A stretch of 64,000 nt of DNA from Spirochaetia bacterium (GTDB lineage: Bacteria > Spirochaetota > Spirochaetia > CAKZLE01), in the NCBI GenBank assembly GCA_963677595.1, contig OY782041.1:736001-800000 (forward strand), written 5' to 3'. Under the pieces are notes generated by a model. The model saw nothing but the letters and a program-made list of their open reading frames with translations, was not told the origin of the DNA and did no database searches. Position 1 is the first letter of the stretch. Each line of letters starts with the position of its first letter. Of the stretch, positions 43,864 to 53,053 are shown piece after piece. Both the position numbers and the translations under genes were made by a program.

Positions 43864-44925
43864 ATGAAGATTACAATCAAAGATATAGCACAACAGGCAG
43901 AGGTCTCCGTCTCTGCCGTCTCACTTGCCCTCAACGACAAGCCGGGGGTGAGCCGGGAGACGAAGGAGAGGATACTCGCGATCGCCCAGGAGATGGGGTA
44001 CGAGTTCACCGCTCGGGACACGTCAGGAGCTGAGGCCGTAGTACGACTTCTGAAGATCCAGCGCCACGGCCATACGATCAACGCAAGCCACAATATCTTC
44101 ATAGATGACTATATCGACGGGATCAACTCGATCGCATCACGATCGGGGATCACCCTGGAGATCGCGACCTACCATACCGACACATCTATCGAAGAGATCG
44201 CTGAGATCATGGGCAGGAACACCCAGACGAAGGGGTACCTGATCCTGGGTACCGAACTGAGCGCCTCTGATGTCACGACCCTGATCGAGACCGGCAAGGA
44301 TATCGTCTTCATGGACACCTTCATCGACTACATCCCCGCCGACTTCGTTGATATGAACAATACCGATGCCGTCTACAAGATCGTCACCTACCTAGTCGGC
44401 CACGGGCATACCGAGATAGGCCTGATCACCAGCAGCGTCCCGACGAGGAACTTCTACCTCCGTGAGCAGGCCTTCTACCAGGTGATCGAGCACCTCAGGC
44501 TCCCCTATATGGACCAGTACATCGTGGATGTAGATTCCACCTTCAACGGGGCCTATGAGGATATGAAGCGGTACCTTGAGGGGACCCCCACCCTGCCGTC
44601 AGCCTACTTCGTCATCAACGACATCGTGGCACTCGGCTGCATGAAGGCCCTCCAGGAAGCAGGCTATGCCATACCCGACGACATCTCGCTCATTGCCTTC
44701 GACAACCTGCCGATGGCCACGATGGTCTTCCCTGCCCTCACGAGCATCGATGTCTCCAAACGGAAGATCGGACAGAATGCCCTGACGATACTCCTCTCCA
44801 AGTCAGAGCACAATGAGAGCGCCCCGCCCATCAAGATGCTCATTGGGGGAGAGCTCGTCGAACGGGACAGCGTAAGGACCCTTGAAAAAGCAAAGCAAAT
44901 GACCCCCTCGGAATGTTCGTTTTAA
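43864..44925 (+). CDS. LacI-family transcriptional regulator
   Basis: TIKDIAQQAEVSVSAVSLALN, IPDDISLIAFDN, P.LTSI. Confidence 0.94.
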   Translation: MKITIKDIAQQAEVSVSAVSLALNDKPGVSRETKERILAIAQEMGYEFTARDTSGAEAVVRLLKIQRHGHTINASHNIFIDDYIDGINSIASRSGITLEIATYHTDTSIEEIAEIMGRNTQTKGYLILGTELSASDVTTLIETGKDIVFMDTFIDYIPADFVDMNNTDAVYKIVTYLVGHGHTEIGLITSSVPTRNFYLREQAFYQVIEHLRLPYMDQYIVDVDSTFNGAYEDMKRYLEGTPTLPSAYFVINDIVALGCMKALQEAGYAIPDDISLIAFDNLPMATMVFPALTSIDVSKRKIGQNALTILLSKSEHNESAPPIKMLIGGELVERDSVRTLEKAKQMTPSECSF

Positions 44926-45164
44926 CCCCAAATAATCCAGCAAACTGCTCCAGCCATTGAACACTTGGCAGGAGCAAGACTATTATTTAAATTGTAATCA
45001 TTATAATCTACTTTACATTTATGTACTAATCATTATAGAATACTCAGGATTAGGCATATGCATAGCATGATGTACCTGTCCCGTGATTCGGTAAATTCAA
45101 AAAGTCATACAGCATACACACACTACATTCATGCGGAAGCAGGATGTAAGTAAGGGGGATAAGC

Positions 45165-47513
45165 ATGGCTAGCGACAATCGGGAATCACGAATGTTGGAC
45201 TTTGCGAGGACCTTCTCCGAGATGGACAGGGAGCAGATTTTCCACTTTGCCGGTATCCTCTTCAACATCTCGGAGAAGATCGGGTTCGAGAACAACGTGA
45301 ACAGGATACTCGAGACTGCCGGGAAGTACCTCAATGTGAGCAGGGCCTACATCTTCGAGGATGACCTGACGCACAACTTCACCAGCAACACCTTCGAGTG
45401 GTGTAATGAGGGGATAGAGCCGCAGATCAATGAGCTTCAGCAGATCCCGTATGAGATCATCGCCTACTGGCCAGAGACCCTGAAGAATCAGAACATGATC
45501 TTTACCCACGATATCCACAGCCTCCCCGATGCTGTGGTGGAGATCCTAGAACCCCAGAGTATCCGCTCCATAGCGGTATACCCCCTGAGGGTAGATGATG
45601 ACCACCAGCTCATCGGATTCATCGGCTTCGATGAATGCACGAGGCAGAGGGTCTGGACGAATAGCGAGCTCACCTACCTCGCTATCACAGCCCGGATCCT
45701 CTCATTGCTCTACGACCAGATCAGGCAGGAGGTTCGACTCAACCAGCTCTTCGATGACCACCCCTATGCCCAGATCTTCTGCAGGGAAGAGGACCTCGGG
45801 ATCGTTGATGCCAACCAGGCATTCCTTGATCTGTGCGGGTACAGCAAGGAGGAGGTCCTGGGTCTCTCCGGCTGGGATTTCGGGCTCTTCGATTCCGGCA
45901 CGAACAAGGACGAACTCCTCACGTACCTGAAGGGGCATGAAACGTTCAGGATCTTCGAGAGCAGGTTCTACTCGAAGGACGGGACCATGTTTACCGGCCT
46001 CTTCGCGGGGCAGATGATCGAGCTCTCCGGGGTCAGGTCCTGGCTCATCGTCATTACCGATATCTCCAAGCGCAAGAAACTCATCGCCGATATCGAGGAG
46101 CAGAAGAACCGCTTCGAACAGATCATCGACGCGACCGGTGTCGGCACCTGGGAGTGGGAGGTCAAGACCGGGAAGGTGACGTTCAATGAGGAATGGGCCA
46201 ACATGCTCGGCTATACCCTCGAGGAGCTTCACCCAATCTCGATAGAGACATGGTTCAGCCTCATGTATCCTGAAGACAGGCCTGAGAGCGACAGGCTGCT
46301 TCAGGAACACTTCAGAAAAGTCACCCCCTGGTATGAATGCGACATCCGCATGATTCACAAGGACGGAAACCTGGTCTGGATCAACGACAGGGGAAAGGTC
46401 ACACAGTGGGATGAAGAAGGGAACCCTGTCAGGATGTTTGGCACCCATACGGACATCACCGTCAGGAAGCAAGAGGAACTCGACCTTGAGGACTCGTTCA
46501 ACTCCCTCATGGAAGGAGCCAAGAACAAGTCCGAGTTCCTCTCCCAGGTCACCCATGAGTTCAAGACCCCGCTGAACATCATCCACAGTCTCAGCAGCCT
46601 CCTGCTCGACATGGAACTGACCGAGACGCAGAAGAACTACCTGCGGAAAATCGAGAAGTCCGCGAATGAGCTCTACGGGTCAGTCTCGAACCTCTTCGAC
46701 CACACAAGGATCGAGGCAGGAAGATTCATCACAAGCTCATCCGACCTCTCCTTCACAGACCTCTTCTCCGAGATAGCTGATTCATTCAGCTTCACCAGTG
46801 AGGATACAGGACTCCCGCTTCTGAGCGAGATCGATCCAGGGCTGCCCGAGTGGATCCATTCAGACGGGACCATCCTGAAACACATCATCACGAACCTCAT
46901 CGGTTTCGCCTTCAAGAATGCGAGAAAGGGAACGGTCCACCTGATCGCGAAGAAGTCAGCCTCCGGAGACCGGCTGCTGCTGACGATACTGTTCAGGGGA
47001 GGAAGGGAGAATCAGGCACTCATACAGTCTCTGGTCAGTGAGGATCCCCTTACCTATGAGGCAGGATTGAGCATGCTCACCACGAAGGAGCTGGTGAACG
47101 TGCTCGGTGGAAGGCTCACCGGGGAACAGATCGGAGCAGAGACGACCCGTCTCACCGTCGATTTCCCCCTGGTGTCGGGACGCAAGGAGAATACCAGGAC
47201 GACCGGGACACCTCCTCTTCCTGACCAGGGAATCACTCTTGCAGGCCCAGCCGGCACCCCGAAACAACCCAGCAGCGAGGAACTCCTCAGCATGGTGACC
47301 GACCTCACGGACTTCAAGGAGACCATCGCCCTCAATGACCCTGCGGCAGCCTCGCGAACCTTCAACAGGCTGCTTGAACAGGAATACTTCAGGGACCTTC
47401 TCGGACAGATTACCAGGGATGAGATCACGCACTGCATCAGGAGCTATCGTTTCGCGGAACTGCAGGACCTGGTCTCAGAGCTGATTGACGGGTTCAGGGG
47501 GGTGCAGAGATGA
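45165..47513 (+). CDS. GAF-PAS-PAS sensor histidine-kinase-like protein with degenerate ATPase domain
   Basis: GAF (SNTFEWC), PAS/PAC (G.WEW, GTHTDIT), H-box VTHEFKTPL; N/G boxes eroded. Confidence 0.85.
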   Translation: MASDNRESRMLDFARTFSEMDREQIFHFAGILFNISEKIGFENNVNRILETAGKYLNVSRAYIFEDDLTHNFTSNTFEWCNEGIEPQINELQQIPYEIIAYWPETLKNQNMIFTHDIHSLPDAVVEILEPQSIRSIAVYPLRVDDDHQLIGFIGFDECTRQRVWTNSELTYLAITARILSLLYDQIRQEVRLNQLFDDHPYAQIFCREEDLGIVDANQAFLDLCGYSKEEVLGLSGWDFGLFDSGTNKDELLTYLKGHETFRIFESRFYSKDGTMFTGLFAGQMIELSGVRSWLIVITDISKRKKLIADIEEQKNRFEQIIDATGVGTWEWEVKTGKVTFNEEWANMLGYTLEELHPISIETWFSLMYPEDRPESDRLLQEHFRKVTPWYECDIRMIHKDGNLVWINDRGKVTQWDEEGNPVRMFGTHTDITVRKQEELDLEDSFNSLMEGAKNKSEFLSQVTHEFKTPLNIIHSLSSLLLDMELTETQKNYLRKIEKSANELYGSVSNLFDHTRIEAGRFITSSSDLSFTDLFSEIADSFSFTSEDTGLPLLSEIDPGLPEWIHSDGTILKHIITNLIGFAFKNARKGTVHLIAKKSASGDRLLLTILFRGGRENQALIQSLVSEDPLTYEAGLSMLTTKELVNVLGGRLTGEQIGAETTRLTVDFPLVSGRKENTRTTGTPPLPDQGITLAGPAGTPKQPSSEELLSMVTDLTDFKETIALNDPAAASRTFNRLLEQEYFRDLLGQITRDEITHCIRSYRFAELQDLVSELIDGFRGVQR

Positions 47514-48622
47514 CAGGGAACAAGACCATCCTCATCGTGGATGACGTCATAGAGAACATCGACATCCTGATCGGCATCCTTGAGGGGAGCTACCGGATCC
47601 GGGTCGCGACCTCAGGGAAGGAAGCCCTTTCCCAGGTACGGAAAGAGCAGCCTGACCTCATCCTCCTCGACTTCATGCTTCCTGACATGAGCGGGTACGA
47701 TGTCTGCAGGGAGATCAAGGCGAACGAGGAGACTACTGCGATCCCGGTCATCCTCACATCTTCATATACGAACATCCAGAACGAGGAGCTCGGCCTGCGT
47801 GTCGGAGCTATCGATTTCATCTATGAGCCCTTCGTCTCTGACCTTGTCCGGATTCGGGTGCAGAACCACCTGCAGATCTATGATAAGCACCGCGAACTCG
47901 AGGATGAGGTCTCTCGAAGGACCAGGAAAATCCAGCAGGTCCAGGATGCCATGATCGCTTCCTTCGCGTTCATGACCGAAGCCAGGGACCAGGAGACGGG
48001 TGACCATATCTTCCGTACCCAGCAATACTTCGAGATCCTCGCAGAAGAGGTCTACTCCTGCAGGCCGGGCCTATTCAGCTTCGAGTCCATCAAACCCATG
48101 GCCCTTTCGAGCTCCCTCCACGACATCGGGAAGATCGGGATCCCGGACCAGATTCTGCTCAAGCGGGGACCGCTCTCACCCGAGGAGTTCGAGATCATGA
48201 AAGGACACCCGAGGATCGGCGGGGAGATTCTGAGGAAGACCAGTGAATACCTCGGGGGCAAGGAGAACGACTTCCTCCTCTTCGGCAAGGAGATCTCTTC
48301 CTGCCACCATGAACGGTGGGATGGGACGGGGTACCCCAACGGGTTGAAGGGAGAGAGAATCCCCATTTCGGCACGGATCATGTCCATTATCGACGTCTAT
48401 GACGCCCTGCGTTCCGAACGGCCATACAAGAGGGCCTTCTCCCATGAGAAATCGATCTCAATCATCTTTGAGGGTGACGGGAGGGTACAACCTGAACATT
48501 TCGATCCCCTCATCCTTGAGGCTTTCTCCAACCTTGAACCGGTTATGGAGAGGATCTCCTCCGCTGCCCATCCAAGCCAGTATAGCAAGGACAGCGAGAA
48601 AGTCTTCAATGTGAACATCTGA
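47510..48622 (+). CDS. Response regulator with HD-GYP domain (RpfG-like c-di-GMP phosphodiesterase)
   Basis: ILIVDD, DLILLD; HDIGKIGIPD, HHERWDGTGYP, DVYDAL. Confidence 0.93.
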   Translation: MTGNKTILIVDDVIENIDILIGILEGSYRIRVATSGKEALSQVRKEQPDLILLDFMLPDMSGYDVCREIKANEETTAIPVILTSSYTNIQNEELGLRVGAIDFIYEPFVSDLVRIRVQNHLQIYDKHRELEDEVSRRTRKIQQVQDAMIASFAFMTEARDQETGDHIFRTQQYFEILAEEVYSCRPGLFSFESIKPMALSSSLHDIGKIGIPDQILLKRGPLSPEEFEIMKGHPRIGGEILRKTSEYLGGKENDFLLFGKEISSCHHERWDGTGYPNGLKGERIPISARIMSIIDVYDALRSERPYKRAFSHEKSISIIFEGDGRVQPEHFDPLILEAFSNLEPVMERISSAAHPSQYSKDSEKVFNVNI

Positions 48623-48684: not shown

Positions 48685-48780
48685 AAAAAAAACCCCTCAG
48701 GGAAAAGGAGGTTAAAAACCCTGAGGGGAACATCAAAAGGAGGTCGATGAAAAAAGTCTTATGCTCTTTCATAACAATAA
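48685..48780 (-). ncRNA. Candidate small RNA with two anti-Shine-Dalgarno loops
   Basis: Two hairpins each displaying ACCUCCUUUU; the last has a 10-bp stem plus U8; no ORF. Confidence 0.55.
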
Positions 48781-48873
48781 CAACGTCCTGCCACAAAAGG
48801 TTACAAAAAAACTTTTTCAACAACTATATAAATAAGTTATCTTTGCCGGATAACTGATTTAACTTTGTTTCGC

Positions 48874-49437
48874 CTATAACATAGTCATAACCGAAAAATA
48901 AATCAAGTACCTGCAACACATTTTCACACTTTTTTTATCGAATGAAAACTGCTGCTTCAAACACTATACATAGCGTAAGATTCTTCTTCCTACGCTATAT
49001 GGTCAATTCTTCATGGAAAAGGGCTGTCTGGTATTCTCCAGGACATCCCTCCAGAGGCTCCCCTCGATCTTGACCCTGTTGCGTTCTGCAACAGCTACCC
49101 GGATCGGGATATGCACGAACTTGTTGTTCAGGAGGCTGATCAGGGTCCTCGTCTTTCCCGCCATGGCAGCGTGGACCGCATGGGCCCCGAGCCGTGAGCA
49201 GTAGATGGAATCGTTCGGGTTGGCAGGGGCACTTCGGATGATGTAGCTCGGGTCGATGTACTTGATGTTGACCTCGATCTCCTCATCATCGAAATACTGC
49301 GCGATCCTCTCCTTGAGGTACTCCCCGATGTTCACCAGCTTCTTGTTTCCTGAGGCATCGGTCTCCTTCGTCTCCTCGAGCAGGTTCTGTCCTGCTCCCT
49401 CAGCGACGAGGATGACGGCATGGTCCCGGTCGAGGAT
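48874..49437 (+). repeat. 564-bp direct repeat, left copy (identity extends 3 bp to 49440)
   Basis: CTATAACATAGTC...GTCGAGGAT(CCG), identical by eye to 51596-52159(52162), constant offset 2722. Confidence 0.95.
49003..49437 (-). pseudogene. Duplicated 3' fragment of pfk
   Basis: Encodes the same C-terminus as the ORF ending at 51725; truncated at the IS end. Confidence 0.92.
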
Positions 49438-51595
49438 CCGGTCTTTTTACCAGAATTAGCGAGTATGCCCATTTTCCCCATTTCAGCCCTGTCTAGGGCT
49501 ATTTTTTTGGCCATTACGAATTTTTAAAGAAATATTACTGTGCTACGTTGTACCACGTTGCGCCACGCTACCAAATGTGTTACACTATATTACACAGGAG
49601 GTAGCCCATGTATGTCTCCGTTATCCCAGAACACGCAACCGGCAAGCATCTGATGCAGTACGTCACAAGTACCCGCAAAGGGAAAAAGACTAAGAAAACC
49701 ACGGAGGAAACCATCGGCTATGTCGAGGACTTCCTTGATCGCTATGATGACCCGGTCGCTCACTTCAAAGCAGAGGCCAAGCGGATCACAGCAGAGCGGA
49801 AAGCTCAGCAGAAGACTATAGGGGTTGAACTCCAACCCGATGCACGGCTTCCCTTCGATCCGGATACCCACAGCTTCTCCCGTGAATTCAACATCGGCCA
49901 TGCGGCGATCAGTCAGGTATTCCACACCCTTGACCTCCACACCTTCTTTGATCGGCGCCGGATAAAGCTTGATGTGCAGTTCAATCTGACCGCTGTCATG
50001 AAACTCCTCATCTATGAGCGTATTCTGGCTCCTGCCTCCAAACGCGCTACCTGGAAGTCTCGAAGGCGATACTTTGACAAGATGGACTTCAATCTCAATG
50101 CGGTATACCAGACCCTTTCTCACATCAACCCCTGGACTGATGACCTGATCGCTCACCTGCATGCGAAGATGGTAGAACTCTATGACCGGGATACCACCCT
50201 CATGTACTATGATGTGACCAACTACTACTTTGAGATCGACGAAGCTGATGATTTTCGCATAAGGGGAATCTGCAAGGAGCACCGTCCGTTACCGATCGTG
50301 CAGATGGGGCTGTTCATGGATGAACAGGGCTTCCCGGTGTCCTTTGACTTGTTTCCCGGTAATGTCAATGACTGCCTGACCTTTGAAGCAATGAGCGAGC
50401 ATGCCAGAACCCTGTTTGAGGCCAAGCATCTGATCTTCGTAGCTGACAAGGCCATGCTCACGGGGAACAACATCGCAGATGTGATCCTCCATCATAACGG
50501 GTATGTCTTCAGCAAGTCGGTACGGGGCGGGACGAAAAAACTCAAGCAGGCGGTCAGGGATCCTCATGGCTATCTGCGGTTTGCGGAAGACGGGAAGCTC
50601 ATTGCGCCTGGTGACAACGAGACGGCAGTCTGGTCCAAGTACAAGATCCTTGATGAGCAGAAACCCACCTATGTGACGAACACGGACGGCAAGCGGGTAG
50701 CCTCCTCAGGTGTTGGCCACTACCAGATCATCTATTGGTCACGTGCGTATGACAAACGAGCCAAAGCGCAGCGGCTGGAAGCGGTAGAGCATGCGCTTGA
50801 TGCATCATCACGGCAGAGTAAGGAAGTCATCGACAGTAACTACGGGAAGAACAAGTATCTGATGACCATGGTCTATGATCCCCAGACCAAGAAGTATACC
50901 GACAACTATAAGGCCAAGACGGAGTTTGATGCTGCCAAGCTTGAAGAAGATGAGTCGTTTGACGGATTCTATGTCATTGAGACCAATGTGACGGGGCTCA
51001 GACCGTTTGTCGATGCCAGGGGACATGAGACCGGTGAACTCGAGCCTGCGTTTGCCACACCTCACCGCTGGCTCAAAGAAGAGGGCATGCTGCAGCTCAA
51101 CCGGCCGATTGGCCCTCTGGATATTATTACGATGTACCATGGGCTGTGGAAGATCGAACAGTCCTTCAGGGTCACCAAGAGTGAGTTGGATGCCCGTCCG
51201 GTCTTTCTGTCTTTAGAGGATCGAATTCATTCCCACTTCCTTACCTGCTTCATCGCTCTGCTCATCCTGCGTATCCTGGAGCATGAACTCGATCATGAAT
51301 TCTCAACAGAGCAGATAGGGACTTCCCTGAATCAGGCGAATGTCGCAGAGATCACTGGGGCAACGTACATGACTTTGCAGTACGATGAAGTCCAAAAGGC
51401 TTTGAAGGAAAAGATGGGAATCCCGTTCGGCATGAATGTATACTCGAGAGCTGCGATCAAGAAGATGATCGCTGAGACGAAAAAAAACCGGAAACGGTAG
51501 GGACGTACTACAAGTTTTTTTAGCCAGGTGCTGACCTATTGTGTTGTATTGCAATAGGTTAGCGCCGTCATTTCCTAAATTGGTAAAAACACAGG
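49438..51595 (+). mobile_element. IS1634-family insertion sequence #2 (2158 bp)
   Basis: Terminal IRs CCGGTCTTTTTACCA / revcomp CCTGTGTTTTTACCA (13/15), single transposase, 564-bp flanking DR. Confidence 0.93.
49608..51500 (+). CDS. IS1634-family DDE transposase
   Basis: YYDVTNYYFE, GICKEHRP.P.VQMGL, VADKA, YHGLWKIEQSFR..K. Confidence 0.95.
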   Translation: MYVSVIPEHATGKHLMQYVTSTRKGKKTKKTTEETIGYVEDFLDRYDDPVAHFKAEAKRITAERKAQQKTIGVELQPDARLPFDPDTHSFSREFNIGHAAISQVFHTLDLHTFFDRRRIKLDVQFNLTAVMKLLIYERILAPASKRATWKSRRRYFDKMDFNLNAVYQTLSHINPWTDDLIAHLHAKMVELYDRDTTLMYYDVTNYYFEIDEADDFRIRGICKEHRPLPIVQMGLFMDEQGFPVSFDLFPGNVNDCLTFEAMSEHARTLFEAKHLIFVADKAMLTGNNIADVILHHNGYVFSKSVRGGTKKLKQAVRDPHGYLRFAEDGKLIAPGDNETAVWSKYKILDEQKPTYVTNTDGKRVASSGVGHYQIIYWSRAYDKRAKAQRLEAVEHALDASSRQSKEVIDSNYGKNKYLMTMVYDPQTKKYTDNYKAKTEFDAAKLEEDESFDGFYVIETNVTGLRPFVDARGHETGELEPAFATPHRWLKEEGMLQLNRPIGPLDIITMYHGLWKIEQSFRVTKSELDARPVFLSLEDRIHSHFLTCFIALLILRILEHELDHEFSTEQIGTSLNQANVAEITGATYMTLQYDEVQKALKEKMGIPFGMNVYSRAAIKKMIAETKKNRKR

Positions 51596-52159
51596 CTATA
51601 ACATAGTCATAACCGAAAAATAAATCAAGTACCTGCAACACATTTTCACACTTTTTTTATCGAATGAAAACTGCTGCTTCAAACACTATACATAGCGTAA
51701 GATTCTTCTTCCTACGCTATATGGTCAATTCTTCATGGAAAAGGGCTGTCTGGTATTCTCCAGGACATCCCTCCAGAGGCTCCCCTCGATCTTGACCCTG
51801 TTGCGTTCTGCAACAGCTACCCGGATCGGGATATGCACGAACTTGTTGTTCAGGAGGCTGATCAGGGTCCTCGTCTTTCCCGCCATGGCAGCGTGGACCG
51901 CATGGGCCCCGAGCCGTGAGCAGTAGATGGAATCGTTCGGGTTGGCAGGGGCACTTCGGATGATGTAGCTCGGGTCGATGTACTTGATGTTGACCTCGAT
52001 CTCCTCATCATCGAAATACTGCGCGATCCTCTCCTTGAGGTACTCCCCGATGTTCACCAGCTTCTTGTTTCCTGAGGCATCGGTCTCCTTCGTCTCCTCG
52101 AGCAGGTTCTGTCCTGCTCCCTCAGCGACGAGGATGACGGCATGGTCCCGGTCGAGGAT
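51596..52159 (+). repeat. 564-bp direct repeat, right copy
   Basis: Identical to 48874-49437; contains pfk 3' end and downstream hairpin ATAGCGTA...TACGCTAT. Confidence 0.95.
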
Positions 52160-53053
52160 CCGCTTCTTCAGGTGTTCGAGCAGGCCGTTCGGCCCATTGA
52201 GGTCGAAGGGGTTCTCGGGGATGAGGCAGAAGTTGACATCACTCATCGCCAGGGCGGTATGGGCTGCGATGAACCCGGACTCACGCCCCATGACCTTCAC
52301 GAGTCCGATGCCGTTGATCGCGTCGGTCGCCTCGATGTGGGCTCCCCGTACCGACTGCACGGCAGTGCTCACGGCAGTATCGAACCCGAACGAGCTCTGG
52401 ATGAAGGAGAGGTCGTTATCGATGGTCTTCGGGATCCCCACGATGGCGATCCTCAATCCACGCTTCTCGATCTCCTCACCTACCTCGTCAGCTCCGCGCA
52501 GGGTCCCGTCGCCGCCGATGGTGATCAGGATGTTCACGTTCATCCGTTCGAGGGAATCAACGATCTCCTCGACCCGGTCACCGCTCCCGCGAGCTGAACC
52601 GAGGATCGTCCCGCCCTTCATCTGGATGTCATCGACGACATCCGGGTCGAGGGCAACAGGTTCATAGGGGCTGTCGGGCATGAGTCCGCGGTACCCGTAC
52701 TGGATGCCGCTGATCCTCCTGACCCCGTAGCGGTACCAGAGGCACCTAACGACTGCCCTGATGACGTTGTTGAGCCCCGGGCAGATCCCGCCGCAGGTGA
52801 CTACCGCCGCATGGACATGGGCGGGGTTGAAGTAGATCCTGTCACGGGGACCGGCAACCTCGATCAGGTCCTCATTGCCGATCTCGGGGATCCCGTCGTC
52901 TCCCGCATGGGCGTCGATATTGAAGAGGATCCGCTCGGAATCCTGTACGTAGTTGGCGATACTGTCACCCTTGATGTTTGACATCTCGATCGGTGACTTA
53001 ATCTTAGCCGGCCCGAGGGTCCGTATCGTGAAATCATAATGATTCTTTGTCAT
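51725..53053 (-). CDS. pfkA: ATP-dependent 6-phosphofructokinase (X-clade)
   Basis: [44 protein letters not shown]. Confidence 0.93.
   Translation of the reverse strand: MTKNHYDFTIRTLGPAKIKSPIEMSNIKGDSIANYVQDSERILFNIDAHAGDDGIPEIGNEDLIEVAGPRDRIYFNPAHVHAAVVTCGGICPGLNNVIRAVVRCLWYRYGVRRISGIQYGYRGLMPDSPYEPVALDPDVVDDIQMKGGTILGSARGSGDRVEEIVDSLERMNVNILITIGGDGTLRGADEVGEEIEKRGLRIAIVGIPKTIDNDLSFIQSSFGFDTAVSTAVQSVRGAHIEATDAINGIGLVKVMGRESGFIAAHTALAMSDVNFCLIPENPFDLNGPNGLLEHLKKRILDRDHAVILVAEGAGQNLLEETKETDASGNKKLVNIGEYLKERIAQYFDDEEIEVNIKYIDPSYIIRSAPANPNDSIYCSRLGAHAVHAAMAGKTRTLISLLNNKFVHIPIRVAVAERNRVKIEGSLWRDVLENTRQPFSMKN

Follow-up and report, generated by a model that had tools for sequence, protein, structure and literature searches.

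The 64,000-nt stretch of spirochaete DNA analyzed here (hereinafter, the window) contains a 380-nt gap that is bounded on one side by a plus-strand response regulator/phosphodiesterase gene, which ends at position 48622, and on the other by the 3' portion of a phosphofructokinase gene (pfk) on the minus strand. This gap holds a predicted small RNA (sRNA) gene on the minus strand. The short form of the RNA, driven by an ECF-type promoter, is predicted to span 48685..48772 (about 88 nt). Read from its 5' end, it consists of the stretch AUGAAAGAG (48764..48772), which mimics a target start and, in the predicted folds, pairs with a U-rich anti-start element to form a weak stem, P1; the anti-start element itself, GACUUUUUUCAU (48747..48758), complementary in sequence to AUG AAA AAA GUC (Met-Lys-Lys-Val); anti-SD motif 1, ACCUCCUUUU (48735..48744), which lies in a linker or small loop and matches the 16S rRNA 3' tail; a terminator hairpin of 10 bp with a 16-nt loop (48693..48728), supported by covariation; anti-SD motif 2, again ACCUCCUUUU (48703..48712), which follows a U run within the terminator loop and is open across homologues; and a U8 tail (48685..48692, A8 on the plus strand), at which the 3' end was set. 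Upstream lie the ECF-type -10 element TGTTA (48778..48782) and -35 element TGTAAC (48800..48805), the latter kept in homologues and common to the ECF sigma gene. Farther upstream, a sigma-70-like promoter, TTGATT-N17-TATGTT (48878..48906), would yield a long form of about 187 nt, and the 5' extension of this putative form contains a hairpin (48835..48855) whose structure recurs in homologue folds while its sequence differs.

The first-pass annotation of this DNA had reported the 10-mer AAAAGGAGGT twice on the plus strand and a perfect 10-bp stem preceded by A8, and both observations are confirmed (48703-48712 and 48735-48744 for the 10-mer; 48693-48702/48719-48728 for the stem; 48685-48692 for A8). 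Counting both strands, the 4.3-Mb genome contains 10 copies of the 10-mer, and nowhere else do two of them lie within 60 nt of each other. Two further hairpins of that annotation fared less well. The letters of the CATC/GATG stem are present (48731-48734/48746-48749), but the stem forms in just 16 of the 105 pattern-found homologues; the TTATG/CATAA hairpin (48759-48774) also exists as described but straddles the predicted RNA start. Instead, the 5' pairing that recurs in homologue folds is between GAAAGAG at the 5' end and CUUUUUUC, and this weak stem, joining a purine-rich 5' end to the U run ahead of motif 1, is more common than CATC/GATG. The minus strand folds with z-scores of -4.1 (131 nt) and -3.0 (96 nt).

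Strong single BLAST matches to the RNA (E<=1.3e-4) were found in 20 of the 40 relatives searched, from 16 families of the class. The first covariance model, built from 22 sequences, detected 26 of the 151 genomes of the phylum at E<=0.01, some of these being merely related one-motif hairpins, and the second model (R2, 65 sequences) detected 103 of the 151 class genomes at E<=0.001, 64 of them at E<=1e-7, with no matches in families f5 (0/3), f10 (0/3) and f26 (0/7). An exact-pattern scan that covered 36 of the 64 parts of a contig collection yielded at least 119 loci, 104 of which are titled as spirochaetes (Sphaerochaeta, Pleomorphochaeta, Sediminispirochaeta, Spirochaeta, Brucepastera, Treponema, and Aphodenecus, which we take to be a spirochaete). 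The hairpin, open loop and U tail are present in 105 of these 119 loci; 10 of the 14 failing loci carry non-spirochaete titles, and five non-spirochaete loci that pass resemble spirochaete copies and may be mis-binned. The pattern-found homologues were picked for both motifs and include kin that are not independent, so that motif invariance within this set is partly circular. In three genomes lacking the ECF gene orthologue (G007, G014 and G030), the RNA match is absent too. Within the genome studied here, the gene is single-copy: a search for a second copy yielded two weak matches (E of 0.08 and 0.17), at 398597-398663 (L039) and 1950554-1950615 (L040) of contig G000:C1. Both look like paralogues, with a U run, an anti-SD-like motif and a terminator.

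The terminator stem evolves under clear pairing constraint. In the BLAST-found set, 97.7% of the stem cells are paired and six of the 10 pairs have changed on both sides; none of 500 shuffles reaches the observed pairing, and slid controls drop to 44-63%. In the 65 model-fitted sequences, all 10 pairs covary, with a fit that leans towards structure. While the stem covaries, the two ACCUCCUUU motifs, both equal to the 3' tail of the genome's 16S rRNA, remain fixed. Motif 1, whose first 9 nt are identical to this tail, is near-invariant in the BLAST-found set; throughout the 65 aligned sequences the motif reads CCUCCUUU(U), with a fourth U where 16S rRNA has C. Motif 2 is always in the loop, with a mean unpaired probability of 0.96-1.0 across 98 homologues. 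The 5' stem shows paired changes as well, in Sphaerochaeta (AGAAAG/UUUUCU) and in homologue L188. Among the non-Watson-Crick cells of the terminator stem in the 65 aligned sequences, 17 are G.U, none is A.C and 16 are others, an asymmetry that favors the minus strand as the one transcribed. Conservation and covariation in relatives, among the checks named in the first-pass annotation, are both found, and comparison of these sequences establishes a conserved minus-strand element with a predicted promoter, a covarying terminator and two fixed anti-SD motifs. It is almost certainly transcribed as an 88-nt RNA, perhaps along with the longer sigma-70-driven form. A search of sequencing runs with a 1.9-kb query, which is long for a small RNA, returned no RNA dataset among its matches.

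The pfk gene flanks 54 of the 146 loci tested, many of which had just 300-500 nt of flanking sequence, and a gene that we take, from its motifs, to be pgi-like converges on the RNA in many loci; other copies have different neighbors. In the window, the place that pgi occupies beside the RNA in relatives is taken by genes for a LacI regulator, a PAS histidine kinase and a response regulator (43864-48622), which suggests a rearrangement. On the opposite side, an IS1634-family transposase gene (49608-51500) lies between two exact 567-bp copies (48874-49440 and 51596-52162) that hold the pfk 3' end and the sigma-70-like promoter of the RNA; the second copy of this promoter is directed into the transposase gene from the gene's 3' end. 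IS1634 elements make long target duplications, and the 567-bp copies fit this pattern. That the RNA ancestrally lay between pfk and pgi points to a possible metabolic role, against a reading centered on secreted proteins.

The motif TGTAAC-N16/17-(T/G)GTT precedes the RNA here and is found in 41 of the 105 pattern homologues; TGT-AC is invariant in 18 aligned homologues, which had been chosen for carrying the motif. The motif is kept in loci where the upstream neighbor is not pfk (for example, L016, L019, L021, L026, L028 and L041-L044), so the RNA appears to have its own promoter. The spacing, described in the first-pass annotation as slightly short, is not: the -10 element is TGTT at 48782-48779, 17 nt past TGTAAC, compared to 16 nt in most relatives. 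The genome encodes three sigma-70-family proteins, only one of which is ECF-sized; its gene is followed by one for a zf-HC2 anti-sigma factor and, judging from gene order, is presumably the orthologue of T. pallidum TP0092. The same promoter motif lies ahead of the orthologue of this ECF gene in 29 of 30 genomes, and its TGTAAC begins about 32-33 nt before the start codon (L080, G000:C1:132600-134000; L202-L231), so that the ECF mRNA looks leaderless. The RNA start at 48772 was placed by applying this distance to the RNA. At the sequence level, then, the promoter of the RNA matches that of the ECF sigma gene, the promoter feature looked for in sigmaE-type sRNAs.

TGTAAC-N16-(T/G)GTT thus provides a usable promoter consensus for a conserved spirochaete ECF sigma factor. 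The strict motif has 21 matches in the genome, 15 of them intergenic, compared to 4-9 for six other spacings. Among the 26 genes preceded by a relaxed motif, 13 look secreted (the baseline is 14%); two have weak matches to beta-barrel proteins of the PorV/PorQ family, and most have no Pfam match. The putative ECF regulon (L073-L079) consists mostly of unknown exported proteins. It is very probable that the ECF sigma factor drives the RNA together with about ten genes, the majority of them for exported proteins. In each of 13 hand-picked loci, a sigma-70-like arrangement precedes TGTAAC by 29-79 nt, and a strict pattern for it is matched in 15 of the 41 ECF-type homologues; in a scan with the sigma-70 consensus nothing rose above the threshold, TTGATT-N17-TATGTT falling below it. 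In Sphaerochaetaceae, the ECF gene is kept, and the RNA copy has a sigma-70-like promoter or none detected, without the ECF motif, which counts against the ECF-driven reading. The stops inside the Sphaerochaeta ECF matches are normal gene ends.

The reverse complement of GACUUUUUUCAU-CG-ACCUCCUUUU reads AAAAGGAGGU-CG-AUG AAA AAA GUC, that is, an SD sequence followed by an MKKV start. The statement of the first-pass annotation that no ORF follows either GGAGG does not hold, given that an ATG at 48747 follows the second one and opens a 36-aa frame (MKKVLCSF...). In 58 homologues, which were selected for CAU, this antisense frame starts with MK(K/S) in nearly all cases, ranges from 3 to 55 aa in length and is unconserved past MK(K/S), so we regard the plus-strand ORF as the mirror of a start site and not as a gene. 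Small ORFs were rejected on either strand; the one on the minus strand, followed from the predicted start, continues across the terminator, and in relatives it stops early or shifts frame. The Y4+CAU element is kept in 47 of the 61 non-redundant ECF-type homologues and lost in 14, and the anti-AUG element is lost in 51 of the 64 homologues without the ECF motif. Among those that keep CAU, 18 have both intramolecular partners, 17 only the 5' one, eight only the 3' one, and four have none. The anti-AUG element, with a mean unpaired probability of 0.44, also pairs within the RNA, and some lineages have changed both sides of the stem with the loss of CAU (L016, L188 and L255, with CAG; Sphaerochaeta, with UCUA), so part of the element's conservation may be purely structural.

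Candidate targets were ranked by predicted duplexes with gene starts, which, like the signal peptides, came from our own crude callers (3560 genes, 501 with signal peptides). The 100 best duplexes of the RNA include 39 signal-peptide-like genes, whereas 14 would be expected and motif 2 and the 16S tail give 24 and 13, respectively. When the ranking was confined to the 2142 SD-bearing starts, 42 of the top 100 were signal-peptide-like, against about 16 expected and 21 for the anti-SD motif alone. None of 60 control seeds reached 42: 30 shuffles of the 5' 14 nt gave 5-30, and 30 random parts 6-18. Co-folding with the full RNA placed 27 signal-peptide-like genes among the top 50. ABC binding proteins, defined by Pfam (68 of 69 mapped, a few being regulators or mis-started), supplied 17 of the 200 best-ranked of the 3560 starts, where 3.8 would be expected and where the 16S tail gives three and motif 2 alone seven; AAAAGGAG, which is read by the four-U motif, occurs in 16 of these 68 starts compared to 60 of the 3560 genes. 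Held-out binding-protein families (12 of 13 mapped) had a median rank of 18%, compared to 39% when ranked with the 16S tail; five of the 12 ranked below 1200 of 3560. When the seeds of homologues were scored on the starts of this genome as a stand-in, with one shuffle each and the 1765 of 3560 genes that are SD-bearing, ECF-type seeds gave 31 against 18 for shuffled ones and the others 21 against 14. An M[KR][KR] start is found in 42% of the signal-peptide-like genes but in 4% of the others, and any seed with UUUUUCAU favors MKK starts, so the enrichment demonstrates fit and not regulation. Thus, the targeting of envelope-protein mRNAs is predicted in the form of an enrichment of modeled duplexes. 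The top predicted target (g872) itself has an ECF promoter, which counts against the repressor reading; g873, g2711, g1548 and g2935 are further predicted targets.

No match to Hfq (PF17209) or to CsrA (PF02599) was found in the genome, which is 95.4% complete in a single contig, and KH_KhpA-B matches, indicative of KhpA/B-type genes, are present. The KhpA/B proteins are named as sRNA binders in Fusobacterium in the available part of one study (PMC11039985).

Sigma-E-dependent repressor sRNAs include FoxI of Fusobacterium nucleatum, which acts in an Hfq-free host and for which pairing over the SD of mglB is predicted, and MicA, RybB and MicL of E. coli, according to the accessible sections of PMC9546586. 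To judge by these sections, the spirochaete RNA would share with them an ECF-sigma-driven promoter and a predicted role as the repressor arm acting on envelope-protein mRNAs, and it differs from them in phylum, in promoter sequence (TGTAAC-N16/17-TGTT as opposed to AAC...GTCWAA) and in having, besides two copies of the 16S tail, an anti-start element, which fits a class consensus instead of single mRNAs. Like these sRNAs, it is a free-standing short gene with an intrinsic terminator and no conserved ORF; the enterobacterial ones are Hfq-dependent, FoxI is not, and no Hfq was found here. With the cuckoo/CcsR/NfeR1 and AbcR1/2 (ar15) RNAs, as far as the available text on them goes, it shares repeated anti-SD motifs in unpaired regions and variable stems. 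That text attributes to the group large target sets, including ABC transporters, and Hfq independence to NfeR1 (PMC4615179; 10.1101/2025.11.14.688489), and describes cuckoo RNAs as 2-4 hairpins, each with CCUCCUCCC, restricted to Alphaproteobacteria (PMC4615179). Compared with this description, the CCUCCUCCC loop motif is absent here, its place being taken by CCUCCUUUU in one linker copy and one terminator-loop copy, and there are no 2-4 adjacent motif-loop hairpins, the motif 1 stem forming in the same 16 of 105 homologues. The hosts are Spirochaetota, there is no match to the cuckoo family, and ar15 reaches 22.8 bits against a cut-off of 40.

In Rfam, neither the window nor seven homologues produced a match at the gathering level. 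The best scores came from suhB/MmgR (RF00519; 19.6 bits for the window and 33.1 for homologue L184, against 41), anti-hemB (RF02837; 16.7 and 22.3 against 49.5) and LhrC (RF00616; up to 35.7 against 110), which resemble our RNA in combining a hairpin, a C/U-rich stretch and a terminator; this resemblance likely reflects convergence on the anti-SD motif. No description of the sRNA was found in our literature search. The main text of PMC11109978 names no spirochaete, although its supplement might list the motif; in the part of PMC8632094 available, the only spirochaete is Leptospira biflexa; and the accessible portions of 10.64898/2026.09.22.753630 and PMC7160235 contain nothing relevant. In our literature search, we also found no described trans-acting sRNA from Spirochaetia beyond Borrelia and Leptospira. 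Taken together, this is a real, conserved and widespread spirochaete sRNA gene, apparently without earlier publication, and the sRNA is class-wide, including records titled Treponema, Brucepastera, Sphaerochaeta and Spirochaeta.

We consider it more likely than not that the RNA, with its ECF promoter and complementarity to ribosome-binding sites, serves an envelope-stress response as its repressor arm by base pairing at translation starts, among which those of secreted-protein mRNAs are predicted to be preferred. The first-pass annotation had proposed a minus-strand sRNA that targets ribosome-binding sites from an ECF-type promoter, a prediction supported by conservation, covariation, the strand asymmetry and the promoter held in common with the ECF sigma gene; it did not include the anti-start-codon extension, the sigma-70-like promoter farther upstream or the occurrence across the class. 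Under the proposed mechanism, the ECF sigma factor, freed under envelope stress, would make the RNA together with the mRNAs of exported proteins. Motif 1 or the loop motif would dock on A-rich SD sites; by analogy with known anti-SD sRNAs, CCUCCUUUU probably base-pairs with SD sequences and keeps the 30S subunit out with no help from Hfq. Once motif 1 has docked, the weak 5' stem could open, allowing UUUUUUCAU to pair across AUG and the next two purine-only codons, a modeled step that we find plausible but slightly doubtful. Signal peptides begin with Lys and Arg codons, and all of these would be read since U pairs with A or G. The mRNAs of lipoproteins and ABC binding proteins would then be repressed as a class, and the leaderless sigma mRNA would escape. 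In the boldest form of this model, a single sigma-E sRNA would act as a consensus antisense that recognizes the features common to secreted-protein starts (A-rich SD, AUG, Lys/Arg codons) through an SD toehold followed by displacement of its own start-site mimic; we put this forward tentatively, as somewhat unlikely. If true, the whole lipoprotein and binding-protein export load would be throttled class-wide and Hfq-free, as opposed to through an individually evolved target list. A functional anti-start element would mean that an sRNA picks its targets by the signal-peptide coding signature and controls a protein class at once. Under the envelope-stress reading, the sigmaE-plus-repressor-sRNA design would hold in one more Hfq-free lineage. 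With its sigma factor and promoter defined and its targets ranked, the sRNA is open to direct testing.

In our weighing, the main rival of the secreted-protein reading is a general anti-SD sRNA of the AbcR/NfeR1 type, with two redundant CCUCCUUUU motifs, a broad metabolic or nutrient-uptake regulon and a U-rich 5' part that is structural, which we regard as fairly unlikely. The universal presence of both motifs, the covarying 5' stem, pfk beside 54 of 146 loci with pgi converging in many, the frequent sigma-70-like promoter and the richness of binding-protein starts in AAAAGGAG would all suit such an RNA, and NfeR1 and AbcR1/2 act in this way in the accessible text of 10.1101/2025.11.14.688489. 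However, motif 2 alone enriches binding proteins less (7 vs 17 in the top 200), CAU persists where its partner has moved or is absent, and the ECF promoter, found in 41 of 105 homologues, is fixed on the sigma gene. Binding to a protein or to another RNA in place of mRNA repression, either as a 16S-tail mimic that titrates a factor binding the anti-SD or as a sponge, is improbable: the loops copy 9 nt of the 16S tail, a very stable stem closes the motif 2 loop and would limit long duplexes, and KhpA/B-type genes are at hand, but the fourth U, C in 16S rRNA, fits mRNA AAAAGGAG, the extension is complementary to start codons, and the known sRNAs with C-rich loops pair with ribosome-binding sites in the available parts of PMC4615179 and 10.1101/2025.11.14.688489. 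Very improbably, the element is just a conserved terminator or 3' UTR belonging to pfk, or a terminator that serves pfk and pgi from both directions; it is terminator-like and follows pfk on the same strand in many loci, but has promoter motifs of its own, is kept next to other genes, combines the covarying stem with a fixed loop and linker that a terminator does not need and has no U tract on the plus strand. A plus-strand RNA, whether the CsrA sponge with GGA loops that the first-pass annotation had entertained, a ribosome decoy or an mRNA for a small MKKV peptide, is the least credible reading: AAGGAGG does lie in the loops and an SD with ATG opens the 36-aa frame, but no csrA was found, it is the minus strand that carries the promoter and U tail, no terminator or U tract was found on the plus strand, the G.U to A.C ratio (17 vs 0) favors the minus strand, the SD-ATG gap is 2 nt and the frame (3-55 aa) is unconserved. 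Unlike in sponges of the CsrB/RsmZ type, the GGA motifs would thus be off the transcribed strand, and the host CsrA was not found. An antitoxin of a toxin-antitoxin system was also considered, but the locus has no conserved overlapping ORF.

Outside the class, spirochaete genomes contain related terminator hairpins with CCUCCUUU (L045, L047, L049-L053, L057, L059, L060, L062, L067 and L068) that lack the ECF motif, several of them located directly 3' of tRNA-like sequences. Two further loci (L066 and L069, at about 1460-1570) have a sigma-70-like promoter followed by two tandem CCUCCUUU-loop hairpins, a spirochaete arrangement that resembles the cuckoo layout.
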